Shown here in pieces: positions 4,159 to 45,804 of a stretch of DNA of 64,000 bases. The notes under the pieces are model-generated. The model saw only the letters and a program-made list of their open reading frames with translations, did not search any database and was not told the origin of the DNA. The first letter of the stretch is position 1; each line of letters opens with the position of its first letter. Position numbers and translations under genes: made by a program. Source of the stretch: Opitutia bacterium (lineage in GTDB: Bacteria > Verrucomicrobiota > Kiritimatiellia > CAIQIC01 > Lenti-01); contig SABN01000001.1 of NCBI GenBank assembly GCA_009928955.1, positions 11,994-75,993 on the forward strand, read 5' to 3'.

Positions 4159-4164
4159 TTCCGG

Positions 4165-16907: not shown

Positions 16908-17010
16908 CTGGAGCGGCATTGTGCCGCATTCCCCGCCGCTTGACATCGAAAATGTGCGGGCGCACTCCACGCTTGCGCTTTCCGCCCCTTCTTTCTATGC
17001 TTTGCCCACT

Positions 17011-18081: not shown

Positions 18082-18087
18082 GGCCGC

Positions 18088-20538
18088 TCACGGATTCGCC
18101 CGGATGCGATATCCGGGATCCGGCCAGCGCGCCGGCGAACCCGCCAGGTCGATGCGGATCGTCCCCTGCTGATCCGTCCTCCAGACGCGAATGCCCTTCG
18201 CAGCCAGCCGCCCCAAGGTCTCCCCGTCCGGATGGCGCCCGTCCGCATGCGGACCGGCGCTGATGATCGCATCCCGCGGACGAACCGCCGCCAGCCAGCC
18301 GCCGGAAGTCGCGTCCGCATCCCCATGCCGCCCCGCCAGCAACACCGAGGCCGCCAGCGAGCGGCCAGAAGCCGCCAGCGCTTTCTCCTGCGCCCCGCCG
18401 GCATCGCCCGCAAGCAGGATCGACGCGCCGAAGCGCGCCACCCGCATCACCAACGAGGCATCATCCGCGCACGACATCTTCAACGCTTCCGGCGGCCAAA
18501 ACACCTCCCAAAACAGATTCCCCGGCCAATTTCCGGATTCGCCCGAATGCAGCCGGCGGACGGGAATGCCGGCGGTCTCCGCCCTCCGCAAGACTTCCCG
18601 CATCGGGGGCGAGGCCCACAGAACGGCGGGAAGCCACAGTTCGCCGACGGGCAGTTCGCGCATCAAGAACCGCGCGGCGCCCATGTGCTGCGCATCCGAA
18701 TGCGTCAAGATCAGCACGTCCAGCCGGTTCACCCCTTCGCCGCGCAAGAGCCGCAACGTGTCCTCGGCGCGGAATTCCGGCCCCGAGTCCACCAGCAGGC
18801 GGGCCTTCCGCGCCTGCACCAGCACGGCCTGGCCCTCGCCCACGTCCAGCACCGACACCCGGCAACGGCGCGCATCGTGCGCCCCCCACGCCAGCGCCAG
18901 CACCGCCAACAGCCCGAGGCCCGCCGCCAGCGCGCCGCGCACGCGCCGCGCCATCACCGCCGCCGCCGCCAGAATCCCATACCAGGCGATCACCCCGGCG
19001 GCCGGCGGCGCGCGGATGAACCAATGTCCGCCGGGAACATCGGCCGCCCGCTGGATGCAGAACGTCAGGCAGGACGCCACCGCGCGGGCGGCATGGTTGA
19101 ACACCTCCGAGCCGAAACCGCCCAGCGGCGCGCACAGCAGGCTCATCACTCCCGCCATCAAGATGGCGAAGGCCGCCGGAATCACCAGCAAGTTCATCCC
19201 CAGCGCCACCGGCGAAAAGAGGTTGAAGAAGTAAGCCGTCAGCGGCGCGGTGCTGACCCACGCCGACACCGTCACCGATCCATGCCGGACCGCGGACAGG
19301 GCGCATTCGCGCCACCGCTGTCCCCGGGAAAGCTCCTCGCCGGGCAGTTGCCAAGCGTCGCGGCTCGAGGCGCGGCGCAGCCCGGCTTCCAGCATGGGCT
19401 GGACCGCCAGCAAGCCGGCCACGGCCGTGAACGAAAGCAGGAATCCCAGATCCCCCAGCTGGGCGGGCGCGGCCACCAGAATGACGATGGCCGCCACGGC
19501 CAAGGCCGAGATCGCATCCGGCCGCCGCTTCAGGAACGGCGCCGCCAGCATCAGCGACGCCATCACGCACGCGCGGATCGCGCTGGTGGCCGCCCCCGTG
19601 GTGACCGTATACCCCACCAGCAGCGGCGTCAGGAACAGGAACCAGCGCGTCAGCGGAATGCCCAGCGCGCGCAGGACCCCGGCGAACAGCAGCGTCACCA
19701 TGGCCACATGCGCGCCCGAGATCGCGAAGATGTGCACCGTGCCGGTGGCCGCGAAATCCCGCCGCAGCGCGCCCGGCAGATCTTCGCGATAGCCCAGCAG
19801 CAGCGCCTGCAGCAATCCGCGCTCCTCCGGAAAAGCCTCCAGCCCCCGGCCCAGGATGGCGCGGCACGCCCGGCGCCGCTCCATGCACCACGCCGTGAAC
19901 GGATTGCCCCGCCCGCCATCGAGGAAAACCGCCCGGTCCGGATCGATCACGGCTTGGTTTTCCGGCAGCGTGAACAGGCCCGCGCGCCGCGGCACGGCGG
20001 GCCGCACGATCCCGCGCAGACGCCAGCGCTCGCCATAGCGCGGCCGGCGGGCGCCGGCCTCCCCGCCGCGGAGCACCACGCGGATCCGGTCGTCCGCCCG
20101 GCGCCAAACGCCATCCCGGTTCAGCCCCTCGACCCGCGCATGGAACACCGCCCCGGCGGCCTGTCCCGGCCGCGCGGGCCGCAGAACCGCATCTTCCGCC
20201 GCCACCGCGACGAACTGCACGTATTCCATCGGACGCTCCAGCAGCGCCGGCAGCGAAGTCGCCGCGCGGCCGCCCGTCGACTGCCGCGCATGCGCCGCCA
20301 TCAGGCAGAACGCCACCCCCATCAACGGCCAGACCGACCAGCCCTTGCGGACCCACAAGAACAGCGGCAACAGCAGCAGCCCCCCCGCCCCCCAGAACCA
20401 CATAGGCGAGATCGGCGCGCAAATTCCCGCCGCCGTCCCCGCGATCACCGGAAAGGCCAGCCCGACCATCGCCCGGCGGCGCGGCGGCCGCATCCGGCCC
20501 GCCGCCCCCTGCAATTCCTCCTCGATCCACCATTCCAC
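18088..20538 (-). CDS. comEC: DNA internalization competence protein ComEC/Rec2 (with C-terminal MBL-fold domain)
   Basis: It has a polytopic competence domain plus C-terminal VSVLDVGEGQAVLV...LTHSDAQH (metallo-beta-lactamase motif). Confidence 0.88.
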   Translation of the reverse strand: MEWWIEEELQGAAGRMRPPRRRAMVGLAFPVIAGTAAGICAPISPMWFWGAGGLLLLPLFLWVRKGWSVWPLMGVAFCLMAAHARQSTGGRAATSLPALLERPMEYVQFVAVAAEDAVLRPARPGQAAGAVFHARVEGLNRDGVWRRADDRIRVVLRGGEAGARRPRYGERWRLRGIVRPAVPRRAGLFTLPENQAVIDPDRAVFLDGGRGNPFTAWCMERRRACRAILGRGLEAFPEERGLLQALLLGYREDLPGALRRDFAATGTVHIFAISGAHVAMVTLLFAGVLRALGIPLTRWFLFLTPLLVGYTVTTGAATSAIRACVMASLMLAAPFLKRRPDAISALAVAAIVILVAAPAQLGDLGFLLSFTAVAGLLAVQPMLEAGLRRASSRDAWQLPGEELSRGQRWRECALSAVRHGSVTVSAWVSTAPLTAYFFNLFSPVALGMNLLVIPAAFAILMAGVMSLLCAPLGGFGSEVFNHAARAVASCLTFCIQRAADVPGGHWFIRAPPAAGVIAWYGILAAAAVMARRVRGALAAGLGLLAVLALAWGAHDARRCRVSVLDVGEGQAVLVQARKARLLVDSGPEFRAEDTLRLLRGEGVNRLDVLILTHSDAQHMGAARFLMRELPVGELWLPAVLWASPPMREVLRRAETAGIPVRRLHSGESGNWPGNLFWEVFWPPEALKMSCADDASLVMRVARFGASILLAGDAGGAQEKALAASGRSLAASVLLAGRHGDADATSGGWLAAVRPRDAIISAGPHADGRHPDGETLGRLAAKGIRVWRTDQQGTIRIDLAGSPARWPDPGYRIRANP

Positions 20539-26409: not shown

Positions 26410-26943
26410 CTAGCGCAACCGCTGTCCCTCGTAGGGCAACGCCACGGGCGGCGGCGGCGGCGGCGGCGGCACGTTCTTGCCGCCGCCCGGCGCGCCGGCG
26501 ATCGTCTGCATGGCCAGATTGAAGGCGTTGCCAAAGGCGCTCCCGACTTTCACATCTGAAAGCTCGATGATGGCCCGCTGGATGGCCGAGACGATGGCGG
26601 AGCTCATGCTGGCCGTTGGACTGGCGGCCACCGCCTTGGCCAGTTCGATGGCCAGCGCCGCCCAGTCGTCCTGCGGCATGGTCTGGAACGCATAGGTCAC
26701 GAGGGCGGCGATGCGCACGTCGCGATCCTTGGGCTTCAGGTCCAGCCCCAAGATCTGGATGATGACATCCTTGCCCACGATGGCGGCCTGCGGAATCGAG
26801 GCATCCCGCAACAAGACCACCACCTTCGCGGGGTTTTCCGCCGCCTCCCGGAGCTGGTCCCGGGTCGGCTCCACGAACACTCCGTATGCGCTTCCGGCCG
26901 CCAGACACGCCAGCAGGGTCACCCGCTTGATTTTCGCATTCAT
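26410..26943 (-). CDS. hypothetical lipoprotein with poly-Pro C-terminus
   Basis: It has a lipobox-like VTLLAC signal and the C-terminus GGGKNVPPPPPPPPVALPYEG. It lies 11 nt downstream of the OMP gene. Confidence 0.55.
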   Translation of the reverse strand: MNAKIKRVTLLACLAAGSAYGVFVEPTRDQLREAAENPAKVVVLLRDASIPQAAIVGKDVIIQILGLDLKPKDRDVRIAALVTYAFQTMPQDDWAALAIELAKAVAASPTASMSSAIVSAIQRAIIELSDVKVGSAFGNAFNLAMQTIAGAPGGGKNVPPPPPPPPVALPYEGQRLR

Positions 26944-26954
26944 CGTTCCGCCTC

Positions 26955-28283
26955 CTAATAGCGAATGTTCACGCCCAGGATCAGGCGCTTGTCCACATAC
27001 TCCACGAAATCGAAGTTGGAGGCCACTTCGTCGTAGGTGGCCTCCAGATAGATGCGGAGGAACTTGCCCGGCGCGATGTAATCGACGCGCGCATGCCCTT
27101 CCATGCGCTGGTCCCGCCGATCCTTGGTCACGCCTTCATGCGTCACGAGGTCCAGATAGTCGTCCTCCCGGTAGACGCCGCGCACATAGAAGGTGGTGCT
27201 GGGCTTCCATCGGTAGCCGAGCCCCGCCCAGCCGCTGATGTATTCCATCCCGTTGCCCTGGTAGAAGGACGACCATTGCGTCCCGTTGAAGCCGCCGCAG
27301 CGGAAGGTGAGCTTCTCCGTCATGAACCAATCCGCCGACGCATTGAAGTTGAACGAGATCTGGTCGTGGTCGATGCGGACGCCGGTTTCATCGATCTGGA
27401 CGTCCTCCTCGCCGATGTCCGCGTCTTCGAAGCGGGCCTGGAACGGGCGCGCATAGTATTCCAGCCCCCCCCCGACGCTGTAGACCACCTTGTCCGTGCC
27501 TTGGGCCTTGAGCCCCAGCCGCAGCGTGGTCAGTTCGGCCGCCCCATCGGTGCCTTCCTGGTATTGGAGACCTTGGCGAAGCGTCAGGAATGCGTCGGTC
27601 TTGTCCGTAAGCCCCAGCGAGCCGTCGAATTGCCAGATGTGTCCATCCAAATCCAGTCCGGGCGGGACCCCCAGATCCTTCGGATCGAGCCGGTCGTGCG
27701 TCTCGTTGTCGTAATGGACGCCGGAATAGCGGTAGGACAGCGCCAGTTCCAGCTTGTCCGATACGCGTCGCGAAAGGGAAGCGCCCAATTGGTTGACCTC
27801 GCGCTGGAGATCCAGCGTGTTGCTGTCTTCCACCATTTCCCCCGCCAAGTTGGAGGATTCGATGTCGGAGGAATGCCGGTCGAGGTCGTCGAGGGATCGA
27901 TAGCTTTGGATGAGTTCGAGCAGGGAGCGCCGCCCGTTGCCGTACCGCAAGATGAGGCTGTCCCCAAAAGTGTTGAGATTCCGGTTCTTCTCGGTGGTGT
28001 ATTCCCGCTCCGAATAGAACAAGTTCCCTTGGATGGAAAAACAATTGGTTTCCGACGAGGAGCTGAATTTCAATCCCAGCTCCGGCTCGAAAAAGGTGTC
28101 TTCGACCTCATCGAAGCGATCCTTGTAGACATTTGAATCGTAGGTGATGTTCAAATCCAGATAAGGACTGAAGACCCACGAAAAGAGGCCCACGCCATTG
28201 CCGGGACCGGCAAAGGCGTCGATCGACAGGCTCAGGAGCAGAAATACACCCAGCTTGCGCGCGCGATGTACACACGTGTGCAT
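26955..28283 (-). CDS. putative outer-membrane beta-barrel protein
   Basis: It has a signal peptide (KLGVFLLLSLSIDAFA) and alternating hydrophobic, Tyr/Gly-rich strands. The C-terminus is ...GVNIRY, with an aromatic last residue typical of OMPs. Confidence 0.6.
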   Translation of the reverse strand: MHTCVHRARKLGVFLLLSLSIDAFAGPGNGVGLFSWVFSPYLDLNITYDSNVYKDRFDEVEDTFFEPELGLKFSSSSETNCFSIQGNLFYSEREYTTEKNRNLNTFGDSLILRYGNGRRSLLELIQSYRSLDDLDRHSSDIESSNLAGEMVEDSNTLDLQREVNQLGASLSRRVSDKLELALSYRYSGVHYDNETHDRLDPKDLGVPPGLDLDGHIWQFDGSLGLTDKTDAFLTLRQGLQYQEGTDGAAELTTLRLGLKAQGTDKVVYSVGGGLEYYARPFQARFEDADIGEEDVQIDETGVRIDHDQISFNFNASADWFMTEKLTFRCGGFNGTQWSSFYQGNGMEYISGWAGLGYRWKPSTTFYVRGVYREDDYLDLVTHEGVTKDRRDQRMEGHARVDYIAPGKFLRIYLEATYDEVASNFDFVEYVDKRLILGVNIRY

Positions 28284-28375
28284 CCCATCATTTGGCACTT
28301 TCGCGGATTCGTTGTCAACAAACACTAGATTAAAAAGGAATAAAAAGCGCTCTATCCGCCCAAGACGGGCTGTTT

Positions 28376-30169
28376 TCAGGCCCGGGCGCGCAGGGCGAAC
28401 AGTCCGGCATAGACGCCGTTTGCTTGCACAAGCTGTTCATGCGCACCGGATTCCACGATCCGACCCTCCGAGAGGACGAGAATTCGGTCTGCGACTTGAA
28501 CGGTTGAAAAGCGGTGGCTGACCACGATGGAGGTCTTGCCGGCGAATATTTTCACAACCGATTCCAGCAATTGGCGTTCCGCCTTTGCATCCAGCGAGCT
28601 CGTCGGCTCGTCGAGCATCACGAAAGGCGCATCTCTCACAAAGGCCCGCGCCAGCGCCACCCGTTGCCACTGCCCCTCGCTGAGTTCCGATCCTCCCCCA
28701 AACAGCCGCCCCAATGGAGTGTCATATCCCGCCGGAAGCTGCTCGATCAGGCCGGCCGCCCCCCCCCGGCGCGCCGCCTCCGCAATCCGAGGATCCCCGG
28801 GCGGAATCGCGACATCGCCCATCCGCACATTTTCGCCGGCCGTCATCTGATACCGGACGAAATCCTGGAACAAGGCGCTGAACGAGGCCCGCAACGCCTC
28901 CAGGTCGAACTCCCGGATGTCCGTTCCATCGATCAGGATCCGGCCCCCGGTCGGATCGTACAGCCGGCACAGGAGCTTCACCAGCGTCGTCTTGCCCGAA
29001 CCGTTTTCGCCGACCAGCGCCACGTGCTCCCCCGCCCGGATGGTCAGGTCGAGGTCGCGCAACACATCCCGGTCCATTCCGGGATAGCGGAAGCGGACAT
29101 GCTCCAGCCGGATTCCCTGCGCGATCCGGGACGGCATCGGTTTCGGATGCTCCGGCGAACGGACGCGGAGCGGCAGCCCGAGGAAGCGGTAGAAATGGGA
29201 AATGAACAGCGAATCCTCATAGAGCGAGGCCAGACTGCCCAGCACCCCGGAAAAAGCGGATTTTCCCCGTTGGAATCCGCCATAGAGCAGCGCCAGATCG
29301 CCCAAGGTCATGGCGTTGCCCCGCATCCGCAGATAGACGATTCCCAAGCCCGCGACCATGGCCAGCATCGACAAGGCCTCCGCAACGAATTCGGCGCCGG
29401 CGCGATGCCGCGTCAGCGCCAGCCGGCTCCGGCGCAACCGCCCGCGCAACTCCCGGTGCTGCCGGCGCAGCTCGTTCCCATTCCCGCTCAAGCGGATTTC
29501 CTTGGCAAACGGCAGCGCGGTCAGCAACAGATGGAGATAGCCTGCATAGCGCTCGGCCGCGCTCTGGGAAATCCGCCAGCGATGCCAGCGCCGGGAATTC
29601 CAGATCCGCGCCAGCGCGCCCGGCAAGGCAGCGACGATCAAGACCGGCAGCAGCAGCCCCTGCGACACCCACAACACGCCCGCCACCGAACCCAGCGCGA
29701 TCGCGCCGCCCCCCAACTGCACCAGGTTCCGCACGATGCTCGTGGGGCGCGACATCGCCTCGGACTGCGCCATGCGCATCTGGTCGTGATAGGCAGAAGT
29801 CTCGTAGTACGCCAAATCCAGCTCGATGGATTTTTCCTGCATCGCGTCCTGCACGTGGTCCGACACCGCCGCCGACTGGGCGTCGGCGACGATGGACGAA
29901 AGGGCGCGGCAAATCCATCCGGCCAAGACCACGGCCCCCACCCCCGGCGCCAAGACCAGAAGGCCATGGACGTCGCGGGTCCCTTCCGTTTGCGCCAAGA
30001 ATCGGCCCGCCGCATCCACCACGTGGCGCGTCAAAACCAGCGCGGCCACCGGCAGCAATCCTTGCACCCCGATCACCAGCGCCTGAAGCAGCGTCCACCC
30101 CCGCGCGCTATCCCACACCAGGCGGACCGCTTGGCGCAAATGCCGCAATCTGTCGCGATGCTTCTTCAT
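28376..30169 (-). CDS. ABC exporter, fused permease/ATPase (MsbA/peptide-exporter type, no C39 peptidase domain)
   Basis: The in-frame ATG is at 30169 (MKKHRDRLRHL). It has a 6-TM domain followed by Walker A GENGSGKTT, LSEGQWQR and Walker B MLDEPTS. There is an ATGA overlap with the upstream gene. Confidence 0.9.
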   Translation of the reverse strand: MKKHRDRLRHLRQAVRLVWDSARGWTLLQALVIGVQGLLPVAALVLTRHVVDAAGRFLAQTEGTRDVHGLLVLAPGVGAVVLAGWICRALSSIVADAQSAAVSDHVQDAMQEKSIELDLAYYETSAYHDQMRMAQSEAMSRPTSIVRNLVQLGGGAIALGSVAGVLWVSQGLLLPVLIVAALPGALARIWNSRRWHRWRISQSAAERYAGYLHLLLTALPFAKEIRLSGNGNELRRQHRELRGRLRRSRLALTRHRAGAEFVAEALSMLAMVAGLGIVYLRMRGNAMTLGDLALLYGGFQRGKSAFSGVLGSLASLYEDSLFISHFYRFLGLPLRVRSPEHPKPMPSRIAQGIRLEHVRFRYPGMDRDVLRDLDLTIRAGEHVALVGENGSGKTTLVKLLCRLYDPTGGRILIDGTDIREFDLEALRASFSALFQDFVRYQMTAGENVRMGDVAIPPGDPRIAEAARRGGAAGLIEQLPAGYDTPLGRLFGGGSELSEGQWQRVALARAFVRDAPFVMLDEPTSSLDAKAERQLLESVVKIFAGKTSIVVSHRFSTVQVADRILVLSEGRIVESGAHEQLVQANGVYAGLFALRARA

Positions 30170-31392
30170 GGTCCGGGGGGGGCTTCCGCCAGGGAAATGC
30201 GCCGGGAACGGCCGCGCAACGCATCCCCCGCCAAACGGAAGGGACGGAGGCAGGCGTACAGCGGATAGAGGGCGCCCGGCAAGGCCATTTGGTTCAGTTC
30301 CACCGCGCCCGGCACGAACAGCAGGCGGGACAGGAAGCGCCAGCGATCCCGCATCCGCTCCCGGGTCTGGAGCGCGAAGCGGCTCTGCCGGACAATGCCT
30401 GTTTGAAGAGAAGTTTCCGCCAGCAACCGGGCCGCCGCCATCTCGGCCAAGCGGCGCGCCGCCGCATCCAGGCGCGATTCCGGCCGGAAGGCTTCGGGCA
30501 ACGGACACGCCAGCAGAATCTCCGCCAGTTGCGCGCCCACCCACAGGCTCCGCTTCTGCCCGAAGCGAGAAGCCTCCCGCAACAGGCCGGCCCAGTCCGC
30601 GCCGGGAAACGCCGACAACAACATGGCCGCATCGGCCACCGAGGAAAGCTTGGCCCACATTTCGTTGGCGCCATCCAGACAGACGGCCAGCAGCATCGCC
30701 TCCGGGCCGGGCGCCAAAAGACTCCGGCCCCCGTCCATCGCCAGCGGCCGGCAAGCCTGCGCCAGGAATTCGGCGGTGCGCGGCCCGGAAAGCGCGTGCG
30801 AAATCAAAACGGGCTTGAGATCCAAATGGAGCGCCTCCCCCGGCTTGCGCAGCGACCAATCCTGCAGCGACGCCAGATAGCGCGCCCGGCTGGCCGTGGA
30901 CGGAATCTCGCGGGGCACATATCCTTCCTGTTCCAGCAGGCCGACCGCGCGCAGCAAATCCTCCCGCCGCACGACGAGGTCCAGATCCTCGAACTGCCGC
31001 ATCGAGGGGCTGCCATAGGCCAGCAGGGCCAGCGCGGGACCCTTGATCGGCACCAGCCGGATCCCGTTCGCCTCCATGAGGCGTTGCAGCCGGTGCAGGG
31101 TGGCCGTCGCCCGGAGGTTGTGCGCGGCGATGGCCATGTAATCCCGATGGAAACAGGCCAGGAATTCGGCCGGGACGACCTCGGCCTTCCTCTTCGCCGC
31201 CGTCTTCAACGCCTGATAGGCCAAGGGAACCACATGGTGGTTCATGGCCAAGGTCCGGAGCCGAGATCCATCGACCGGTCGGCCGTGGAGCCATCCATCG
31301 GCCAAGGAGCCGGAACGAGCCGGGCGGGCGCAAGCGCAGAGCCACTCCATCTCGGCGCTTGGAACGCGCGGCATGGTCAGCGCCGTTCTCAT
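30166..31392 (-). CDS. uncharacterised nucleotidyltransferase family protein (NTP_transf_5-like)
   Basis: It reads LVPIKGPALALLAYGSPSMRQFEDLDLVVRREDL, typical of the family seen in lasso/RRE-associated clusters. There are ATGA overlaps at both ends. Confidence 0.7.
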   Translation of the reverse strand: MRTALTMPRVPSAEMEWLCACARPARSGSLADGWLHGRPVDGSRLRTLAMNHHVVPLAYQALKTAAKRKAEVVPAEFLACFHRDYMAIAAHNLRATATLHRLQRLMEANGIRLVPIKGPALALLAYGSPSMRQFEDLDLVVRREDLLRAVGLLEQEGYVPREIPSTASRARYLASLQDWSLRKPGEALHLDLKPVLISHALSGPRTAEFLAQACRPLAMDGGRSLLAPGPEAMLLAVCLDGANEMWAKLSSVADAAMLLSAFPGADWAGLLREASRFGQKRSLWVGAQLAEILLACPLPEAFRPESRLDAAARRLAEMAAARLLAETSLQTGIVRQSRFALQTRERMRDRWRFLSRLLFVPGAVELNQMALPGALYPLYACLRPFRLAGDALRGRSRRISLAEAPPGP

Positions 31393-32009
31393 CGGGTTGG
31401 CGGATCCAAGATCAGGTCGTACGGCTTGCGGCAAGTCCAGCGCTGCTCCCGCGGAATCCAGCAGGCGACCGTTTCTCCCCGATGGATGAACTTGGTGAAA
31501 TCCCCGGCGGCGCCGGCAAAGCGCGCCGCCAAGATCCGCGGCCGCCAGAGCAAGCGCATCAGCCGGCTGGCGCGGAACAGCCGATAGACCGGAGCCCAAG
31601 GAAACAGCAACAGGATCCGCAGGCGGCGCGCCCCATGGCCCAACCCGGCCCGGCGGCGGCCCGCAGGACCGCCCGCCACCGCGGCGCGAACGCCCCCGCG
31701 CTCGCGTTCCACCACCTTGCCGATCAGGAAGGCACGGGTGAGCGGCGCAGCATCGCGATGGAGATTCCCGTCGCCCCAGGTCAGGAATCCGTCGCCCGCC
31801 CTCTTCGCGATCCGGTGCGCGACGGCCTTGCCGGAGGAATGGAAGGCCACGACATCCCCCGGGCGCAGCGCGGCGAAGGAAACTGGAGAAACCCATAGGC
31901 AATCCCCGTCCACGAAAGTCCCCCGCATGCTTTCTCCGCGATAGGAAAGCCGGAGCAACTGCGAATGCGATGGGCGGGAAGCATCCATATGGGGTTCAAG
32001 CATACGCAT
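31389..32009 (-). CDS. S24/S26 (signal-peptidase/LexA-like) serine peptidase family protein
   Basis: It has the GESMRGTF (Ser nucleophile motif GxSMxPT-like), then GDVVAF...AHRI...TWGDGN...D...IGKVV. An extra C-terminal region of ~90 aa follows. Confidence 0.6.
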   Translation of the reverse strand: MRMLEPHMDASRPSHSQLLRLSYRGESMRGTFVDGDCLWVSPVSFAALRPGDVVAFHSSGKAVAHRIAKRAGDGFLTWGDGNLHRDAAPLTRAFLIGKVVERERGGVRAAVAGGPAGRRRAGLGHGARRLRILLLFPWAPVYRLFRASRLMRLLWRPRILAARFAGAAGDFTKFIHRGETVACWIPREQRWTCRKPYDLILDPPTR

Positions 32010-32197: not shown

Positions 32198-32617
32198 CTA
32201 TTCGATCGGCTCCGGCGGCTCGTCGTATCCCGCCGGTTCCGGCGGCTCGCCGTATCCCGCCGGTTCCGGCGGGGCCGGATATTCATATCCGGACGGCTCC
32301 GGATACGAAGAGGTTTCATACCCGCCATCCTCCGTCCCGGAGGCGGCCGCAACGCCGAAGCCCGAACCCGACAGACAGTACACCTTGGCGCTGCTTCCGG
32401 CGGGCCAGCAAAACGTGCCCGCGCTCGATCCCGTCCGGCAGTCGTTGGCCGCGCTCGCCCCATTGGGCTCGCAGATGGGAATCGATGCATTGTTCATCCC
32501 GGCCGGGCAATCCGCCGCGCCATCCCCGACGCTGCAGGTGTCGCCCAAGATCGGCGCCACCCGCCCCATGTCGATGCTGACGGGTTTTTCGTATTTGAGG
32601 CGCGGTTTTTCGGACAT
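32198..32617 (-). CDS. Cys-rich acidic 139-aa protein; candidate RiPP precursor (PqqA/lasso-like leader, six-Cys core, PEPxGY tail repeats)
   Basis: A strong RBS precedes the ATG. The leader is MSEKPRLKYEKPVSIDMGRVAPILGDT. Cys residues sit at 28, 37, 49, 60, 70 and 81. The tail is YPEPSGYEYPAPPEPAGYGEPPEPAGYDEPPEPIE. Confidence 0.6.
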   Translation of the reverse strand: MSEKPRLKYEKPVSIDMGRVAPILGDTCSVGDGAADCPAGMNNASIPICEPNGASAANDCRTGSSAGTFCWPAGSSAKVYCLSGSGFGVAAASGTEDGGYETSSYPEPSGYEYPAPPEPAGYGEPPEPAGYDEPPEPIE

Positions 32618-32715: not shown

Positions 32716-35700
32716 TCAGGGTTGCGGCCGGATTTCAATCACTCGCGGCTCGGATGCGGCGAAGGCGTCCTCCGGGAAAAGCAGCCAGAGGTAGGTGATC
32801 TCCACGGGGTTGCGAGCCAAATCCTCCGGCAGGGTCCGCCATTCCCGGGCATCTGGGCTGTAGAGGATTTGGCCGGGGATCGACGACCCTTCCGCCAAAT
32901 CCACGACCAGATTGGTCACCCACATCGGAACGTCATAGCCGATGGCGATATACCCCCCCGCTCCCGACTTGCCGGTCCACTGGGTGTTCGGGTCGCCATC
33001 CACCGCCGCCCAGCCGTTGGTGTGTTCCGGCCCGTCGTCGCTGGTCACCACCGTCATCGGAAAACTCCCGGCATCCGTGAATTCGGCGGGCGACGCGGCC
33101 TTCGCAACCGCGCGGGGCTTCGGCTCCGGCGTCCGCTCGCCATACACCTCCCACTCGGCGATGCACACGAAACGGTTGGCCGAGTTGGAAAGGCCCGTCA
33201 GCCGCAGATACCGCGCCGACCGCCCGTCCAGCGCCCAATCCTCCCAGCCGCGGTGCTCGCCCGCGCTCGCCTCCACCAGCGGCGACCAACTCGCGCCGTC
33301 CAGCGACGATTCGATGCGGTACTGGTGGACCCGGTAGCTCCAGTCCCAATTCAACAGCCGGATGCGCGACACCGAAGTCGCCGCCTTCAGGTCCAGCGTG
33401 ATCGTCCCGGGCGGTTCGTTCGTCCAGAACGTGTAGCCGTAGTTGGCGCTGGACATATGCACGGCGTCAGTCAAGTACTCCGGCTTGGTCGCCTGCATCC
33501 CCGAGATCGTGCTCCCGTTCGACGCCCGCGCCCAATTCACGCCGATGTCGTCGTCCAGCGCCGTCGCCTCCACCAACCGGTCGGCCCCGCCCGGAACCGC
33601 GATCCGGAAGGTCGCCGTTTCGTTTTCGCCGTTGGCGTCCTCGCTCGCCGCCAGCGTCACCGTTTGCCACGCGTTCCAGTTCGCCGGCGTGAACGTCAGG
33701 TTCGCCCCGCTCTTCACGAAGAGGTTCGCGTCCCCCGCGCTGCGGCTCACGCCGACCGAGACGCTCCCTGCGGGAGCGCTGTCCAGACGCACATGGAAAC
33801 GTCCTTCTCCGCCCTCGCGGACATTGACGGCGGTCGCCAAACACTCGATCTGCCGGGGTTCGACGGGCGCGGCATACACCTCCCACTCGGCGATGCAGAC
33901 GTAGCGGTTGGCCGAGTTGGAGAGGGCGGTAAACCGCAAATACCGGGCCGTCCGGGCCGCCACCGCCCAATCCTCCCACCCGCGATGTTCACCCGTGCTC
34001 GCGTCGATCAGGGCCGACCAGTTCGCGCCGTCCAGCGAAGACTCGATGCGGTAGCGATGGGAGCGATAGCCCCAGTCCCAGTTCAGCAGCCGGATGCGCG
34101 ACACGGTCGTCGCGACCTTCAGGTCCAGCGTCAGCGTCCCGGGCGACGCCGGATTCGTCCAGACCGGATAGCCATAGTTGACGCTGGAGGCGTGCACGCC
34201 GTCGATCGCCCGCTCCGGCGCATACGCCTGCGTCCCCGTGATCGTGCTGCCGAGCGAGGCCCGCGCGCGGTTCTCGCCGATGTCGATGTCCAGCGCGGTC
34301 GCCTTCATGACCCGGTCCGCCACGCCGGGCGCCGAGATCCGGAACGTCGCCGTCTCGTTGGCGCCGTTCTCGTCTTCGCCCGCCGCCAGCGTCACCACCT
34401 GCCACGCGGCCCAGTTCGCGGGCGTGAACACCAGCGCCGCCCCGCTCTGCACGGAAAGGCGTTCGTCCCCGGAGGCCCGGCTCACGGCCACCGCGACGTT
34501 CGCCTCCGGGGCGCGGTCCAAGCGCACATGGAAGCGTCCTTCGCCGGCTTCGCGGACATTGACGGCCGCGGAGGAGAGCTCCGGCCGGGGCAATTGGAAC
34601 TGGCTGGAAGGGCCATAGACCTCCCACTCGGCGAGGCACACGTATTGGTTCGCCGAGTTGGAAAGGCCCGTGAAGCGCAAATAGCGGATCGACAGATCCT
34701 CCACCGCCCAATCTTCCCAGCCGCGGTGTTCCCCCTCGCTCGCATCCACCAGCGGCGACCAGGTCGTTCCATCCAGCGAGGATTCGATCCGGTATTGATG
34801 GGCCCGAAGGCCCCAATCCCAATTCAGCAGGCGGATCCTCGACACCCGCATCGCCTCCTGCAGATCCAGCGTCATCGTCCCCGGCGAGGCTCGGTTCGTC
34901 CAGATGGTGTATCCGTAGTTGGCGCTGGCGCCGTGCACCCCGTCGATCAACCATTCCGGCTTGGTCGCCTGCGTTCCCGTGATCCGGCTTCCGTTCGAAG
35001 CCAGCGCCAGGTTCGGGCCGATGTCGATGTCCAGCGCCGTCGCCTCCACGAACTGGTCCGCCACGCCGGAAGCTGAAACCCGGAACATCGCCGTTTCATT
35101 GTCGCCGTTCCCGTCCGCCGCGGCCGCCAGCGTCACCGCCTGCCAGACATTCCAGTTCGCCGGACTGAACAGCAGGCCCGCGCCGCTCTTCACCGAAAGG
35201 ACGGATGCTCCTCCGCTCCGCGCGACCGTCACGGCCGTGGCGGCGGCCGGAGCATAGGCCAACCGCACGTAGAAACGGCCCTCGCCGCCCTCCCGCACAT
35301 TGACATCGGTCGCGCTGAGCAGGATCGGCGAGACATGGAACGTGCGGACCACGTCCGGCGCCGGCTCCCAATTGCCGTCGCCGGCTTGGAAGGCCATGAC
35401 CGAAACCGCGCCGGCGCCCGTAAACGAAAGATGCGGACCGTCCAAAATCCTGCCCGGTCCGTCAACCACCGCGAAGCCCACCGGCAGGCTGCTCGATGAA
35501 ATCGCGGACAAACCGACCCCGTCGGGCGCAAGGGGATCGTCGATGCCCGGGAATTCAATCGTCTGGGCGGCCTTGGCCACGACCAAGGCGCCGGCCGAAC
35601 CTCCCGCGAAATTCGGATCCTCGATCTCGGCGGAAACCGCGTAGCGGCCCGCAAGAACCGGCGGCGCGTCCCCGCTCCCGTAGGTGATCGCGACCGCCAA

Positions 35701-38700
35701 GCCGGCGGGAACCGTCGCCGCCGTCACGCGCCGGGGCGTTCCATCGTAGGTCTGCTCCAAGCCTGCCAGCGCGACCGTCGCGACCGCCTTGGCCACCACC
35801 CACGTGCCGGTGGTTGAAGCCTGGTGATTTCCATCGACCACGGTGGCGACCACGGCATAGCTCCCGGCTTCCGTCGGGACCGCCGTCCCGCCGTCGTAGC
35901 GGAATTCGACCGCCAAGCCGGCGGGAACCGTCGTCGCCGTCGCGTTCTTCGGCGTGCCATCGTACACCGGCTCCAGCGCGCCCAGCAAGATCACCGCCTC
36001 GGCCTTGGCCACCACCAGCGTGCCGGTGGCCGATCCCACGAAGATGTCATCGGCCACGACGCCGACCACGGCATAGCTCCCGGCCTCCGTCGGCGCGGCG
36101 GCGCTTCCATCGTAGGTGAAGCGGACGGCCAATCCGGCCGGTTCCGTTCGGGCCGTCGCGACGCGCGGCTGGCCGTCGTAGCCCTGCTCGAGATCCTGCA
36201 GGAAAATCTCCGCGGAAGCCGGCGCGCCGTTCGTCATCTCGTTGCCGGCGATGCGCAAGGCCGGGTCGCCGAGCAGATTGTAGACCGCGAAGGTATCGCG
36301 GCTGGACAGATCGCTCCGCAGCGACCGGCGCGCCCGCAAGAACGCCAAGCCCAGCGTACCCACGCCGTCCTGGAGGACGGCGCGATAGAACGCCTCGCCC
36401 AGTTCCATCGCGGGAGCGTTGAACGAGAGCCCCGAGGGAGCCAAGAGCGCGACCGCCCCGCCTTGCGGACGCCTCATCAACAGCTCGCCGAGGCTGTCCG
36501 TCGCGGGCAATTCATAACGCCCCAACAGGCAGCTCAGCGCCACCGTGATCGGCGGCCGGGTGGCGTTGTCCATCTTCGCGACGTCGGCCGCCGTCAACAG
36601 CCCCTTCCCGCTGAGGTTGAAGAGCCCGCCATGGCCCGTGTAATGGATGAACCCCGCGCCGGCATGGAAGGCGTCCATCAGACTCGCGCGCGCCGGGCCG
36701 ATGGCCATCTGGTCCAGATCGATGCGGCTGGCCACCGAATACGGCGCCGTCGCCCACTCCGCCAGCTTGGTGTTTGAATCCGAGAAATTCCCCGCCGAAT
36801 TGCCTTGATCGGCCACCAGCACCAGCTGGTTCTGCCACGCCGAACCGAATCCGGCCTCGTAGACCTTGATCTTCGCGATCATCGCCGCCAGATCTGCCGC
36901 CGTCAGCGCCGGCAGGCGGCCGATGGCGACATCCGGCCGGTCATCGCCGCCGGTGTCCGCCAGCAATCCGTCCGATGCGCAGACCCCGTCGGGGGTTTGG
37001 ACCAGCAACGGCGGCAGCGGATTCACTTCGTCAAACGTGGCGCCCAGATAGTCATAGTGTCCCCCGCCCGCCAGCACCACCATCTTCGGCGCTTGCGCCC
37101 AGGTCGCCGCGGCATGGCGCAACAGCGCCGGAATCGCCTGGGGCGTGCGCAGGCCCCCGGTCATCAGGTCGCAGAGGTCTTCAAACACCGCCACGCCGAC
37201 GCGCAGCCCTTGGCCCGCGCGGTAGTCGGCCAACTCCTGCGCGGCCGGGGCCAGCGCGCGCGAAGCGATCACCAGATAGTCGATCCGGTTCGTCTCCGAC
37301 AAGAACCAGGCGTCCGCCGCCGCCGGCTCCGGCACCAACATCGGAACCGCGGACGATTCGATCACGGCGAAGCGCTCGTTTTCGGCGGCCACCGCCCAAG
37401 CCTTGGCGGAAAGTTCGCCCTTCGCGTCGGCGATCCATGTGGGATTCCCCGCTTCGTCCAACGCCAGCGCCAGCGGATCGGAATAGGCGCCCGCCGAAAA
37501 CGCCGGCGCCTGGCCCGCGCGGAAGGGCGCGACGGGGGCGGAAGGCGTCAGGTCGCGATCGAACGACGCCTCGATCCAGTCCACCACGAAGAAGCTGTGG
37601 CTCTGGCCCGGCTTCATCACGCCGTTCACCATGACCGTGTTGACGCCGTTCACGACCGCCGCGCCGGGGATCGTCAGCTCGGCTTCGGCCGTCTCCTGGC
37701 CGTCGAAGGCGATCGAACCCGCCACGGCGCCGTTGAAACTGATTTCCGCCAAGTGGTCCGGATGGTTGGTCGTGGCGGACCAGCCCATGAGGCGGACCTT
37801 CAGGTTCAGGTCGCCGCCCGCGAAGCCGGTCAGATCCAGCGGGAAGCGGGGCGCCAACAGATCGTTGGTCTGGCTGACGACGCCCGCCCAGAAGTAGAAG
37901 TCCTCCGGCATTTGCGTCATGCTGAACAGGAACCGGTCTTCTTCGAAGTGGAGCCGCACGGGGAAGACCGTCCCGCCGGAGGAAGCCCCCGGCTCGCGGC
38001 GGGGCATGGCGAGGCCCTTGCCCGCCGAAATCAGATAGGCCGCCTCATGCGAATACCAATCGCGCACCGGCGGCCGGGCGTGGAACACCAAGCGGCCGCG
38101 CTCCGCGTCGAAGAGCACCGGCACCGGAAGCCCCTGCTCGGCGATCTTCAACTCCCCCGCTGCGGCCTGCGCCCGCACGTCTTCGAGGGCGAGGCCCATG
38201 CCGGCGGCGATCGAAGTCAACGCCACGCCATGGATGCCTTCTTTTTTCACCAGGACTTTCAGCCGGGAGGACGGTTCCGCGGGAACCGGCGCGGTGCGCG
38301 GCGCAGGCGCGAGCGCCTTGGCCGCCGCGGCTTTCTTCGTCCGGACGGCCTTGGCCGCCGGCGGCGGAACCGCGAACCGAACGGCATGGGTGCCGAGACC
38401 CCGGGCCTCGCCGGAAAGCTCGATTTCTTCCAGGCGGTATGTCCCTTCATCGCCTTCGCGGGCTTCGGGATCGACCAGCCCATAGACGGAACCCGCCTCG
38501 TTGAACGCCGACGGCACCAGGATGTCGCTCATCCGGGTTTCCTTCCCGGTCTCCGGATCGACGCGATGGACGAAGAAACCCGCCGTCCCGAATTCGGAAC
38601 CCGTCCGCCACGCCACGCGCCCGCCGTCTTTCGTCCATTCGCCCCAAACCTCGGCCACCTCGGCGCGGGTGGAGTCCCTTGTGCTGATCCCCAAGTCGAC

Positions 38701-41700
38701 GGCCAGATGGATCTCTTCCTCGCCCGAGGCGGGCGGCCGGCCGCCGACGGTAAACGCCCCGGTCCAGGCGTAATCGCCGGTCGTGCCGGAGATCGCGTCG
38801 CTGTCGACCGCGTCGTCGCCGCCCGCCTTGGAGGCGGTGACGACGTCGTTCGTGCTGATGCCGGAGAGATCGAAGCGAATCACATAGGTTCCGGCCCGCT
38901 TGTCTGAGAACAGATAGTACCCGTCCGCGTCCGTGGTGGTCTCGGCCACGATGATCCCGTTGGTGTTCAGCAGCGCGACCGGCACATCGGCGAACCCGTT
39001 GGTCTCGCCGGGATTCTGGATGCCATCCCGGTTGGCGTCGAACCAGACGCGGTCGCCGATTGAAACCACCTGGAAAAAGCCCGCATCCACCGTGAAGTTG
39101 GTTTGACCGCTGCGCAGCGTCACGGTCGCGGTCAAGCCCGTGTCCGGCGCCGGATCGCTGTCCGTGGCGTCGTCGCCGACGTCCGCCACCGTGGTCAAAT
39201 AGCCCGGCGGAGGCGTGAAACCGATGAGATAGGCGCCCGGAACCAGATCCGTGAACGCATAGGCGCCATCCAGGGTGGTTGTTTCCACGCCCACCACGTT
39301 GGACGCGGCATTGTACAAGCGCACCACGACGTTGGGCAATCCCCGGTCGCCGGATTCCTGCTGCCCGTTCCAGTTCACATCTTCCCAGGTCCAGTCGCCG
39401 ATGGCGCCCAGCCGGTAGAAGCCCGCGTCCCAGCTGGTGTCGTCCGCGCCGCCGCTCAGCGAGAAGACCGCCGTGCGCCCCGTGCCGGCGGCGATGTCGC
39501 TGTCCAGCGCGTCGTCGCCGCCCTGATCCTGCGCCGCGGCAAAATAGTCCGGCGGCGGCGCGAACTCGAGGAAATAGGATCCGGCCGGCAGGTTCGTGAA
39601 GTGGTACGAGCCGTCCGCGCCGGTCGTTGTTTCCGCCAGCAGGTTCGACCCGGCGCCGTAGAGCCGCACCGTCACGTCTGCCAAGCCGGCCTCGCCGACA
39701 CCCTGGATGCCATCGCCATCGGCGTCGAGCCAGGCCCGGTCGCCCACGGTCGCCCACCCCTTCGGCACGATGACGACCGAACTGCTGTCGTTGTCGGCAA
39801 CGGGATCGAACAAGTCGCGGCCGGTCACGGTGGCGGTGTTGGTGATGTTCAAATCCGCGGTGTTTTCACGCACGGTCACGTGGACATGGAGCGTCGTGGA
39901 GGCGTTCACCGCCAGCGTCCCGATGGTCCAGGCCCCGGAACCCGCGCTGTAGGCGCCGTTGGAATGGCCGACGTACTGCACCTGCGGCGGCAACACGTCC
40001 GTGATGACCACTCCCGTGGCCGTGTCGGGCCCGTTGTTCGATGCGACCAGGATGTACGGGATGGTCTCCAGCATGTCTGGCGTGGCCTCGGCGACAAACT
40101 TCCGAACGCCCACGTCCGCGAAGACGACGCAGTTGGTCGTCGACGCTTGCAGCGGCGGCTGCAGGGGGCTGGAGACCGACGCGGTGTTGACCAGTTGCGT
40201 CACCAGCGAAGGCGCATCCACCGTCGCTTGGAACGTGACCACCAGCCTCCCTCCCGGCGTCAGATCTTGGCCGGAGACCAGCCCCGGCGGCGCGAAAGCG
40301 GGATTCGTCGCCACGCCGGACCGGAGGCTCGAAATCTCGATGTTGTCCAGATAGGCGTACTCGCCGCTCTCCCAGTTCTCGGTCCCCGGCGCGGCCTCGA
40401 ACCGGACCGTGGTTCCCGTGGAGATGTAGGCGGTGAGGTCGTAGCTGGCGGTGCCGCTGGCGGTGCCGCCAAATTGCTCGAGTTGCGTGAACGGACCGCC
40501 GGGACTCGTCGCCACCCGCACGGCCAGATATTCATTGGCGTCCAGCCCGACCGTCTGCCAATCGAACGACAGCGTGGCATTCGTTTCCGCGCTCAGGTCG
40601 GCCCACCGCCAAGCGGCCTCGTCGCCGACATAAAGATAATGCAGCGTCATCCGGCCATTCGTCACACCCACGTAATTTCCAACTGGGCCAGCCGTCCCCG
40701 CCGGGTCGTCCTCCTGCCAATCCACCGCCCAGTTCCGCGTGCCGTCCTGGCCGGAATAAGACACGGCATTGAATTCATCGCGGACGGTGCTGACCGTCGC
40801 GTTGGAGACCACGGCAAAGGCCGAATTCGGAACGTAGGTCAGGCCCGCCGGCAAGAGGTCCTCCACCGCGACGCCGGTTTGCGTCACGTTGCCGGTGTTC
40901 ACGACGGTCAGGGTGTAGGTGATCGCATCGCCCGGCGACAGGCAGGACCCGGCGGCGGAGGTCTTGGTCAAGTGCAGCCCATGCACGATCTCCACCAGCC
41001 CGGCATCCCACCGGGTGTCGTGGGTGCCCACCGGCAGGAAAAACGGCGCCGTTCTTCCGGTGGTCCGCGAAACATCGCTGTCGGCCGCGTCGTCGCCCCC
41101 TTGGTTCTGCAAGGTGAACATGAACCCCGGCGGCGCCGTGAATTCCAGGAAATACGTCGCCGGCGGCAGGTTGGGGAAGCTGTAGAATCCCGCAGCCGTG
41201 GTGTTCGTGGTGGCCACGAGGTTCGTGGCGGCATCGTACAGCTGGACCGCCACGCCGGGCATCCCGGTTTCGCTGCCGCCGCCTTGGAGCCCGTCGACGT
41301 CCACCTCCCGCCAGACGAAGTCGCCGATCGAGGCGGGCGGCTGGTGGAAGCCCGCGTCCCGGGTCATGTCGCTCATCCCCCCGGACAGCGCGAATGCCGC
41401 CGTGCGGCCCGTGGCGGGAGCGATGTCGCTGTCCAGCGCGTCGTTGCCGCCTTGGTCCTGCAACGCGGGCAAATGATCCTCAGGCGCGTCGAATTCCAAG
41501 AAATAGGTTCCGGAAGGCAGGTGGGCGAAGCCATAGGCCCCGGCGACGCCGCTGGTCGTCGTCGCCACCCAGTTCGACCCGGCGGCGTAGATCCGCACCG
41601 TCACGCCCGTCAGCCCGGGCTCGCCCCCGTCTTGGATGCCGTCGCCGTCCACGTCGAACCACGCCCGATCGCCCACGGAGTTCGCCACCGAAACGTTCGT

Positions 41701-45100: not shown

Positions 45101-45373
45101 CACGCGTCCGCCGACCGTGACATCCCCCAGGAACATCTGGTTCGAAACGCCCTCGTTGAACCGGATGTTGTAGACCGTTCCCGTGGGGAACCCCGCGCTG
45201 CCGCCGCCCGTGGCGGAATAGTTGTCGTTCGTGTCCGTGTAGGTCTGGTACGTCACCGTCGCGCTCGAAATCCCCTGCACCTGCGCCTGCGCGAAGGCCC
45301 CGCCCCATGCCAGCCAGACAAGCAGAAGCGCCCCGCATCCATGCACCCGACTTTTCTGGATTGTCGCTCTCAT
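42143..45373 (-). CDS. giant adhesin-like surface protein, upstream segment (signal peptide, ~330-aa unknown domain, 5 SdrD-B-like repeats, DUF11-like, start of lectin-like domain)
   Basis: It starts with a signal peptide (MRATIQKSRVHGCGALLLVWLAWGGAFAQA). The reading frame makes sense down to ...NWDSGDSFTF at the A5 run (42141-42145). The remaining track ORF (41480-42140) is Arg-rich out-of-frame overlap. Confidence 0.85.
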
Positions 45374-45416
45374 TGACCGGCGGAAGAACCCCGAGAAGAA
45401 CTTTCCGCCTGTTCAA

Positions 45417-45749: not shown

Positions 45750-45804
45750 AATTCATTCTCCAAGCCGCTTTCATTGGGGCGGCGGAAGCTCTCAACCATG
45801 GAAA

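Follow-up and report, generated by a model that had tools for sequence, protein, structure and literature searches.

Putative processing and export genes for a Cys-rich peptide as the probable downstream half of a SynChlorMet-like radical SAM cluster in a Kiritimatiellia genome

Introduction

What shared task joins a peptidase, a nucleotidyltransferase, an ATP-binding cassette (ABC) exporter, an outer-membrane barrel and a small secreted protein, encoded one after another beside a gene for a Cys-rich protein? This arrangement occupies positions 26410-32009 of a 64,000-nucleotide stretch of an Opitutia bacterium genome (Verrucomicrobiota, Kiritimatiellia; GenBank GCA_009928955.1, contig SABN01000001.1, positions 11,994 to 75,993), which we call the window. 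An initial annotation, made from the sequence, described a processing/export module in which an S24/S26 peptidase may replace the C39 leader protease of the exporter, and a barrel and a lipoprotein may complete a dedicated route across the envelope. Our data suggest that the five genes are probably the processing/export, downstream half of a larger radical S-adenosylmethionine (SAM) peptide-maturation cluster. The other half, which the annotation had left out, is a radical SAM/PqqD/HprK-like gene set at 45.8-50.1 kb that resembles the SynChlorMet (SCM) cassette. To our knowledge, the definition of the SCM cassette includes no known precursor, peptidase or exporter; the term 'SynChlorMet' was not found in the literature that we searched.

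Results

Five genes recur in a conserved order beside a putative Cys-rich precursor gene

The five open reading frames (ORFs) of the initial annotation are all present on the minus strand, with the signature sequences GESMRGTF...GDVV (peptidase), FEDLDLVV (nucleotidyltransferase), NIRY (end of the barrel) and PPPPPPPP (tail of the last protein). Together with the neighboring Cys-rich gene, and with the evidence for each in brackets, they are:

32198 to 32617, minus strand: cys, 139-residue Cys-rich putative precursor (ortholog alignments)
31389 to 32009, minus strand: pep, predicted soluble S26B-like (SEC11/SipW/archaeal-type) peptidase (hidden Markov models [HMMs], PDB profile search, AlphaFold2, Foldseek, conservation, fusions)
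30166 to 31392, minus strand: NTase, NTP_transf_5 nucleotidyltransferase (PF14907, 156 bits; ATGA-coupled to the pep and ABC genes)
28376 to 30169, minus strand: ABC half-transporter exporter of 597 residues with transmembrane and nucleotide-binding domains and no C39 domain (ABC_tran, 114 bits)
26955 to 28283, minus strand: BBP2_2-type outer-membrane beta-barrel with a signal peptide and a C-terminal NIRY (BBP2_2, 25.6 bits; orthologs)
26410 to 26943, minus strand: p177, predicted secreted helical-repeat protein of 177 residues (ortholog alignment, AlphaFold2)

The ATGA overlaps that chain pep to NTase (31389-31392) and NTase to the ABC gene (30166-30169) were confirmed base by base, and the 92-nt gap between the ABC and barrel genes holds if the barrel starts at the ATG at 28283; translation could alternatively start from GTG at 28325. 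We found no promoter-like sites proper to the barrel gene, and terminator-like sites there fall within shuffle expectation. A hairpin or attenuator between cys and pep was considered and rejected, as the sequence there folds no better than its shuffles (z = 0.16).

We collected related loci (L numbers) by a genome scan, which gave 18, and by contig look-ups and a metagenome scan, which gave about 17 more, the metagenome scan contributing about 10 true loci; gene order was read by tblastn of the window proteins. The 18 loci of the genome scan come from Verrucomicrobiota, Kiritimatiellia, Victivallales, two "delta" bins and one Chloroflexota bin. The cys-pep-NTase-ABC block recurs in about 35 loci, essentially all of them, from Verrucomicrobiota, Kiritimatiellia, Lentisphaerae, "delta" and Chloroflexota bins. 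Where a giant gene that separates the two halves in the window is missing, the order runs uninterrupted as scmE-scmD-scmF-scmC-cys-pep-(NTase)-ABC (L001, L002, L007, L017, L023, L031, L036, L038 and L039), and L021 is rearranged yet complete, as ABC-cys-pep-NTase-scmE-scmD-scmF-scmC. Because the scm genes adjoin cys-pep wherever the giant gene is absent, we read 26410-32009 as the downstream half of one conserved cluster. A further set of matches, many of them from gut metagenomes (L045-L063), cover only the peptidase core at residues 27-100 and appear to be ordinary signal peptidases outside the pep family.

The Chloroflexota locus L018 (1-10480) has two sets of scm-like radical SAM genes, an ABC exporter on the opposite strand and a precursor gene of its own at 954-1205 with a KYVKPVARDLS leader. 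It carries no barrel or p177, which would fit the lack of an outer membrane in many Chloroflexota.

The upstream half resembles the SynChlorMet cassette

Upstream of the giant gene lie, with their best-matching models:

45805 to 46413, minus strand: ScmC-like HprK-related P-loop protein (TIGR04249, 39.2 bits, cut-off 125; Hpr_kinase_C, 20 bits)
46410 to 47585, minus strand: ScmF-like radical SAM/SPASM enzyme (TIGR04251, 341.6 bits, cut-off 400)
47582 to 48205, minus strand: ScmD-like double-PqqD protein (PqqD, the leader-binding domain, 67 bits in two stretches; TIGR04248, 53.5 bits, cut-off 100)
48192 to 48572, minus strand: 23S_rRNA_IVP/four-helix-bundle (Avd-like) gene inside the scm block
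48553 to 50070, minus strand: ScmE-like PqqD-radical SAM/SPASM fusion (TIGR04250, 381.8 bits, cut-off 400; Pfam PqqD, Radical_SAM and SPASM)

The best NCBIfam matches of the ScmE, ScmD, ScmF and ScmC genes are the four SCM cassette families. The stretch 45805-50070 thus brings together what makes up an SCM cassette: two PqqE-like radical SAM/SPASM enzymes, a PqqD homolog and the HprK-like ScmC (TIGR04249, TIGR04248, TIGR04250 and TIGR04251). The window set differs in that ScmE carries an N-terminal PqqD domain and ScmD is a double PqqD. Because all four scores lie under the equivalog cut-offs, we classify the window scm genes, on these profile matches, as a sister form of the SCM cassette. The same set adjoins cys-pep in L001, L002, L007, L017, L021 and L023. 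A further tie is L029, whose ScmC passes the cut-off (162.7 against 125) and adjoins a Cys-rich ORF starting MRRSDMRYEKPIVIELD (an RYEKP leader) and a PqqD-pep fusion, so that a cassette with an accepted ScmC has the same kind of precursor and a fused peptidase. The scmD/scmF and scmF/scmC junctions, like that between scmE and the capD-like gene upstream of it, are ATGA or GTGA overlaps, with ATGA at scmF/scmC and at capD/scmE (50067-50070).

A further Avd-like gene lies between scmC and the precursor gene in L023 (9000-9755), and most other loci have none. The Avd-like (23S_rRNA_IVP) gene is probably a mobile passenger that has landed repeatedly in the cassette.

pep is a signal-peptidase homolog with a near-invariant Ser/His/Asp set and no membrane anchor

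The pep protein scores 24.0 bits on Peptidase_S24 (cut-off 23.3), 13.1 bits on Pfam Peptidase_S26 (cut-off 22.9) and 43.8 bits on TIGR02228 (sigpep_I_arch; cut-off 51.85), a model on which its relative in L019 reaches 52.7 bits. A profile search of PDB sequences placed human SEC11C and SEC11A at the top (1e-7). The AlphaFold2 model, with a predicted local distance difference test score (pLDDT) of 90.9, consists of a beta domain (residues 19-110), Arg-rich helices (114-154) and a four-strand beta domain (160-193). In Foldseek, the first domain resembles LexA C-domains at a template modelling score (TM-score) of 0.69-0.70, normalised to the target, and also SEC11A, SpsB and SipA (SipA at rank 13). 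The LexA/signal-peptidase fold and the conserved catalytic residues bear out the assignment of pep to the S24/S26 clan.

Alignment with SEC11 pairs G-E-S27-M with S-G-S-M, A-H65-R-I with V-H-R-V, and G-D80-G-N-L-H-R-D86 with G-D-N-N-x-x-D-D, from which we predict a Ser27-His65-Asp80/86 catalytic set of the SEC11/SipW/archaeal type. The Ser-Lys dyad expected by the initial annotation was not found: the lysine position is taken by His65, and a single Lys is near-invariant, K173, located apart in the C-terminal domain. We measured conservation in a set of 149 sequences with less than 50% mutual identity (148 relatives plus the window protein). Ser27 is present in all 122 representatives that have an N-terminus, His65 in 147, Asp80 in 148 and Asp86 in 145 of the 149, so that a peptidase-like protein without catalytic residues, which would have spoken against the annotation, is not what this family looks like. 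The family is broad: pep has 65 close clusters, and an exhaustive profile search gave at least 219 clusters (50% identity) at E <= 1e-30; nearly all of the 150 matches listed align over the full length, including the C-terminal domain.

In that C-terminal beta domain, K173 (about 31491-31493) belongs to a TKFIH motif and is kept in 142 of 149 sequences; W155, P157 and a PYDL motif are likewise conserved. Substrate binding is one possibility for the domain.

Gene starts in this family need care. Relatives called as 179-residue proteins starting at Met28 are, judging by the DNA, mis-starts, because G-x-S-M is encoded in frame upstream in 18 of 18 genome loci. Most orthologs are called 7 residues shorter than the window protein (199 residues), and the true start may for this reason be M8; an AAGGGG lies about 8 nt 5' of the ATG at 32009.

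We detected no hydrophobic segment in pep: its maximum 19-residue Kyte-Doolittle mean is 1.12, as against at least 1.6 for the transmembrane helices of the ABC protein. On this ground the protein is predicted to be cytoplasmic or peripheral, and since it has no membrane anchor, it would not be a conventional signal peptidase. It is strongly basic (36 R+K, 16 D+E), and the precursor core is acidic (16 D+E, 2 R+K).

Domain fusions give the strongest functional clue. Three relatives fuse PqqD to pep (P0289, P0301 and P0332) and two fuse pep to NTP_transf_5 (P0415 and P0409); in L023, pep and NTase form one continuous ORF in a cassette that is otherwise identical. One further relative is fused to a methyltransferase. 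Fusion to PqqD or NTP_transf_5 is the layout expected of a RiPP (peptide synthesized ribosomally and modified post-translationally) leader peptidase. In addition, every locus that we found through a full-length pep relative, and that extends far enough, has a Cys-rich ORF next to it. These data speak for the idea, already put forward in the initial annotation, that the S24/S26 enzyme is the leader protease, and pep most likely removes the leader of the Cys-rich precursor before ABC export.

The putative Cys-rich precursor has a Y-x-x-P leader and a candidate cleavage site

The N-terminal part of cys is near-invariant (MSxKPRLKYEKPVSIDMGRVAPILGDT; residues 9-28 are YEKPVSIDMGRVAPILGDTC). The core that follows has six Cys, one every 9-12 residues, in small-residue repeats of the form C-x-x-G-x-x-A. 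An acidic Pro/Ser/Gly tail, the only variable part, comes last. The family comprises 120 clusters (P0066-P0185), none with a functional name, and cys has no Pfam or NCBIfam family.

Divergent Cys-rich ORFs at other loci share a leader of the form Y-x-x-P-x-x-x-(D/E)-(L/M): KYVKPVARDLS in L018, QYKAPEAKDMS in L019 and SYLPPTARDLS in L037, with a fourth case in L029. The initial annotation had named a peptidase-NTase-exporter trio lacking a small Cys-rich ORF as a possible counterexample; among the loci with enough sequence, we found none. Directly ahead of the first Cys, each precursor form carries a Gly whose -3 residue is A, I or V (ILG|D, VHG|V, AQG|W, AYG|D and AKG|Q). Because this pattern agrees with the -3/-1 rule for type I signal peptidases, the leader is likely cleaved after (I/V/A)-x-Gly preceding the first Cys.

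The tails end in TAFP in 23 and in PGAF in 22 of the 120 clusters, endings that might mark a conserved site of recognition or modification at the C-terminus.

NTase and the ABC protein as decoration and export candidates

NTase matches NTP_transf_5 (PF14907) at 156.1 bits (cut-off 31.2) and has a G-S...D-L-D motif, YGSPSMRQFEDLDLVV; we found nothing relevant on PF14907 in the literature searched. In lasso peptides, an HprK-like kinase phosphorylates the C-terminal Ser, the nucleotidyltransferase PsmN is required for adding hexoses to the phosphate (PMC8498205; PMC11912497), and a nucleotidyltransferase is sometimes fused to the leader protease B2 (PMC8498205). By analogy, we propose that NTase and ScmC may add a phosphate-linked decoration, perhaps on the Ser/Thr-rich tail of the precursor.

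The ABC protein has transmembrane segments at residues 25-280 and is PglK/HepA-like, with a match to MsbA_lipidA at 284 bits, well under the cut-off. Its PDB matches are generic type IV exporters (MsbA, Sav1866 and ABCB1), and they do not discriminate between a peptide and a lipid-linked glycan as substrate. As the initial annotation had noted, there is no C39 domain: no Peptidase_C39 match was found, the first transmembrane segment starts at residue 25, and TIGR01193 scores 173.6 bits against a cut-off of 523.85. The further suggestion that the S24/S26 enzyme replaces C39 overstates the rule, as several RiPP exporters, among them NisT and McjD, have no C39 domain.

Two other assignments were considered for this region and rejected. 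For type I secretion, we found no HlyD-type gene at 26-52 kb, the barrel, where a TolC-like channel would be expected, is BBP2_2-type, and the type I secretion ABC models score far under their cut-offs. An anti-phage defence system received only generic ATPase matches from PADLOC, for the ABC protein.

The barrel and p177 travel with the cassette but are optional

The barrel matches BBP2_2 at 25.6 bits (cut-off 23.7), over residues 325-456 only in the window protein; its ortholog in L023 scores 43.5 over the full length. Barrel orthologs, 48-76% identical, stand 3' of the ABC gene in 14 other loci. Counting the window, 15 of the 19 loci with enough downstream sequence have both barrel and p177, among them L023, which has no giant gene; L014, L016, L021 and L002 have neither. 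L002 has LytR, a different BBP2_2 barrel and Wza instead, and this barrel shows no detectable similarity to that of the window (BLASTP E = 0.013). What follows p177 varies from locus to locus (lysS and lol genes, prfC, an integrase, a helicase, a transposase). Because these downstream neighbors differ, we conclude that barrel and p177 close the cassette and do not form a separate conserved operon, the case that the initial annotation had set against itself.

The window p177 has a Sec-type signal peptide and a lipobox-like LLAC, and had been taken for a lipoprotein. The ortholog alignment does not sustain this: the lipobox Cys occurs in only 3 of 12 orthologs, and all have a signal-peptidase-I-type site, A-x-(A/G) followed by (A/V/I)F. 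p177 is therefore probably a secreted, periplasmic helical-repeat protein rather than a lipoprotein. Its AlphaFold2 model (pLDDT 85.6) has helices over residues 28-146, then a linker that is Gly-rich and disordered, a run of Pro and a C-terminal PYEGQRL motif, near-invariant in the family as PPQPPPPPVALPYEGQRL. We found no PDB match to the fold under E = 0.1. The family has 90 clusters, with no Pfam family apart from one partial match of a 301-residue member, and its few named sources are Kiritimatiellia, Verrucomicrobia and Lentisphaerae bins. The contigs of its members often have the same recorded length as those of pep and cys homologs.

Of the envelope-spanning route proposed at the outset, the co-occurrence of barrel and p177 with the cassette stands. 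The two genes are optional (missing from 4 of 19 loci) and no periplasmic adaptor accompanies them, which leaves a continuous channel unsupported. From the gene content, a role of barrel and p177 at the outer membrane for the cassette product is plausible.

The cassette adjoins sugar genes and large extracellular proteases

Three further features of the window bear on how the cassette is read:

32716 to 45373, minus strand: giant secreted multidomain protein, between scmC and cys in this lineage (Pfam matches)
45374 to 45804: AT-rich spacer of 430 nt between scmC and the giant gene
50067 to 52145, minus strand: CapD/PglF-like Polysacc_synt_2 sugar dehydratase (PseB, 176 bits)

The CapD-like gene overlaps scmE, and in L023 the CapD-like protein and the PqqD-radical SAM ScmE are called as one product of 1042 residues (3275-6403). 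It is also adjacent in L001 and in L021, where it follows Wzz downstream of scmC (15714-19869). Through this gene, the peptide cassette is repeatedly tied to sugar-nucleotide metabolism and, in the window, to the upstream polysaccharide locus. That locus, on the same strand at 52060-63970, encodes a VanZ-like protein, Bac_transf, Polysacc_deac_1+DUF3473, a GT4 glycosyltransferase, a formyltransferase and a 596-residue protein with no Pfam match; Polysacc_deac_1+DUF3473 deacetylases are of a type associated with PEP-CTERM loci.

Such surroundings raise a different answer to our opening question: the ABC protein, barrel and p177, possibly with NTase, would export or assemble the glycan of the adjacent sugar genes, and the peptide would be regulatory or accessory, a primer or an anchor, or part of a peptide-glycan conjugate. 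The ATGA overlap and the fused product just described fit this, as do Bac_transf, the deacetylase and the GT4 glycosyltransferase 5' of the cassette in the window, Wzz and CapD flanking L021, LytR, BBP2_2 and Wza after the cassette in L002, the likeness of the ABC protein to MsbA, PglK and HepA, and the barrel's matches to BBP2_2 and, faintly, to EpsL. We nevertheless think it unlikely. The EpsL score is 14.1 bits against a cut-off of 275, the genes 3' of p177 are unrelated housekeeping genes, and orthologs of barrel and p177 occur only with this cassette in the data that we gathered. Moreover, whatever the arrangement, the ABC gene overlaps or nearly abuts the cys-pep-NTase genes; this includes L021, with its block inverted against the scm genes.

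The giant protein contains SdrD_B (ten copies), DUF11, Peptidase_C25 (220 bits), MBG_3 and F5_F8_type_C (three copies). In the window its gene is broken at 42141-42145, where a T5 homopolymer carries a +1 frameshift; with one T taken out, ...SFTFYVSTNGFAG... is regained, and the ortholog in L028 is a single ORF of 4291 residues. The break may be due to misassembly or mark a slippage site, or the gene may be a pseudogene. The gene is absent from L001, L002, L007, L017, L021 and L023, and we regard it, from this distribution, as a lineage-specific insert in bacteria of the Planctomycetes-Verrucomicrobia-Chlamydiae (PVC) group. In L027 (4288-9819), an S8 protein with F5_F8_type_C domains takes its position, and in L029 (4002-7382), an S8 peptidase of 1126 residues directly follows the PqqD-pep fusion. 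A big extracellular protease of varying catalytic type thus seems to accompany the cassette. The genome has a GC content of about 66%, and the 2-kb bin containing the spacer at 45374-45804 has 0.586; the spacer may be regulatory or mark where an insertion begins or ends. It suggests that the giant gene and the genes from cys to p177 are transcribed apart from the scm genes.

These proteases offer another route to leader removal. A secreted C25 or S8 protease would remove or trim the leader outside the cytoplasm, and pep would be a SipA-like chaperone or scaffold, process another protein of the cassette, or confer immunity. In the window, and in every PVC-group locus that extends far enough upstream, the giant Peptidase_C25 protein lies directly 5' of cys, S8 proteins stand at that position in L027 and after PqqD-pep in L029, and SipA, a non-catalytic signal-peptidase homolog, is among the Foldseek matches of pep. 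We hold this to be quite improbable: the catalytic Ser/His/Asp of pep are essentially invariant in more than 140 diverged relatives, unlike those of an inactive homolog, pep is always present where the giant and S8 genes are missing (L001, L002, L007, L017, L021 and L023), and its fusion to PqqD points to the leader as its ligand.

It is barely credible that the five genes are unrelated neighbors and pep an ordinary signal peptidase I, as the JGI and NCBI names of some homologs ('signal peptidase I', 'S26 family signal peptidase') would have it, given an order kept across several phyla with varied flanks, the ATGA overlaps, and a pep without a membrane anchor, with its own C-terminal domain and with fusions to PqqD or NTase; by these comparisons, we take chance adjacency of the five genes to be excluded.

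Discussion

We observe a shared gene content, assigned folds, conserved catalytic residues, conserved synteny and domain fusions across the cassettes. Taken together, these make it reasonably probable that the window encodes an SCM-like, radical SAM-dependent, RiPP-type cluster, with 26410-32009 as its processing/export half. In the pathway that we propose, the precursor would be the 139-residue Cys-rich protein, its Y-E-K-P leader bound by the PqqD domains of ScmD and ScmE. ScmE and ScmF would cross-link the six regularly spaced Cys, and the HprK-like ScmC and the NTP_transf_5 enzyme may add a phosphate-linked decoration, as in the lasso analogy. The basic, soluble S26B-type pep (Ser27/His65/Asp80/Asp86) would then cut the leader in the cytoplasm, after (I/V/A)-x-Gly, and the C39-less ABC half-transporter would carry the acidic product across the inner membrane. 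In the PVC group, the BBP2_2 barrel and p177 might handle the product at the outer membrane. Which protein acts on which, where the leader is cut, the chemistry, the order of steps and the outer-membrane role are what we infer from the comparisons. Of the initial annotation, the leader-protease idea and the joint travel of barrel and p177 are retained on comparative grounds, and the Ser-Lys dyad, the lipoprotein and the continuous conduit are given up.

Several points weigh against this pathway. The pep protein falls under the curated TIGR02228 cut-off, as do all four window Scm proteins under their NCBIfam equivalog cut-offs. The conservation of the cys core nearly matches that of the leader and far exceeds what RiPPs usually show, and the product, at about 110 residues with a long tail, may act as a small secreted protein and not as a classical RiPP. 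Barrel and p177 are missing from L014 and L016 though the ABC proteins there are 66-67% identical to that of the window, and the cassette contains no periplasmic adaptor (membrane-fusion protein). Large secreted C25 or S8 proteases beside the precursor in many loci could remove the leader. The cassette lies repeatedly in or beside polysaccharide loci and its barrel belongs to a family typical of exopolysaccharide clusters, so the ABC protein, barrel and p177 might serve a glycan. Finally, every step of the pathway is drawn from comparative data.

Among known enzymes, pep is closest to the S26B signal peptidases (SEC11, Bacillus subtilis SipW and archaeal signal peptidases), with which it shares the fold and the motifs G-x-S-M, H-R-(I/V) and G-D-x-N-x-x-x-D. 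It differs from them in having no transmembrane anchor or signal sequence, in its added Arg-rich helices and C-terminal beta domain, in the fusions of some relatives, and in its context, a peptide-maturation cassette and not Sec secretion.

As a whole, the cluster resembles a radical SAM RiPP pathway of the kind dependent on a leader-binding domain, and comes closest to the SCM cassette. A further cluster-level parallel is with lasso peptide clusters such as those of paeninodin and pseudomycoidin, which likewise have a PqqD domain partnered with or fused to a leader protease, an HprK-like kinase with a nucleotidyltransferase, and an ABC protein without C39. Y-x-x-P, a motif of lasso leaders, is also found in the precursor leader here. 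The cassette departs from them in its Ser/His S26-type protease, its product of about 110 residues and the presumed cross-linking of Cys by two radical SAM/SPASM enzymes. A lasso cluster in the strict sense was considered and rejected: with every gene at 26.4-52.1 kb assigned, there is no Asn-synthetase-like cyclase and no transglutaminase-like B2 protease.

The pair of barrel and p177 resembles the AlgE/AlgK-type porin and periplasmic helical-repeat partner of polysaccharide secretion, in that a barrel of an exopolysaccharide-locus family stands beside a small, secreted, all-helical repeat protein. Here p177 has no sequence match and no significant structural match to tetratricopeptide-repeat lipoproteins, no conserved lipobox and a unique poly-Pro/PYEGQRL tail, and it follows a peptide-type ABC gene. 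None of the sources searched (the literature, Pfam, NCBIfam and PADLOC) describes an S26-type RiPP leader peptidase, these precursors or p177, and the papers on leader-binding (RiPP recognition element) domains that we examined mention no signal peptidase, S24/S26 enzyme or nucleotidyltransferase.

We tentatively extend this reading, in a form that we consider possible yet doubtful. A soluble homolog of endoplasmic reticulum and archaeal signal peptidases might have been recruited as a PqqD-guided cytoplasmic leader peptidase, a class new to RiPPs, and would be the missing processing enzyme of SynChlorMet, with the Y-x-x-P Cys-rich proteins as its missing precursors. The product would be a conserved, cross-linked, phospho-(glyco)sylated small acidic protein and no diversifying antibiotic, delivered via the ABC protein, the barrel and the poly-Pro adaptor to act at the surface with polysaccharide and/or the giant protease.

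If the proposed pathway is right, orphan SynChlorMet-type cassettes would gain a family of precursors, with 120 clusters in the close form and divergent ones besides, together with a leader peptidase and an exporter. RiPP biosynthesis would gain a new class of leader peptidase, a soluble Ser/His S26B enzyme, sometimes fused to PqqD, with at least 219 clusters at 50% identity, and the tailoring pair of kinase and NTP_transf_5 enzyme would extend beyond lasso peptides. The conserved core, the acidic tail, the polysaccharide context and the PVC-specific barrel and p177 would then point to a function in the envelope, not that of a conventional antibiotic, in a group of bacteria that is poorly studied for such functions.

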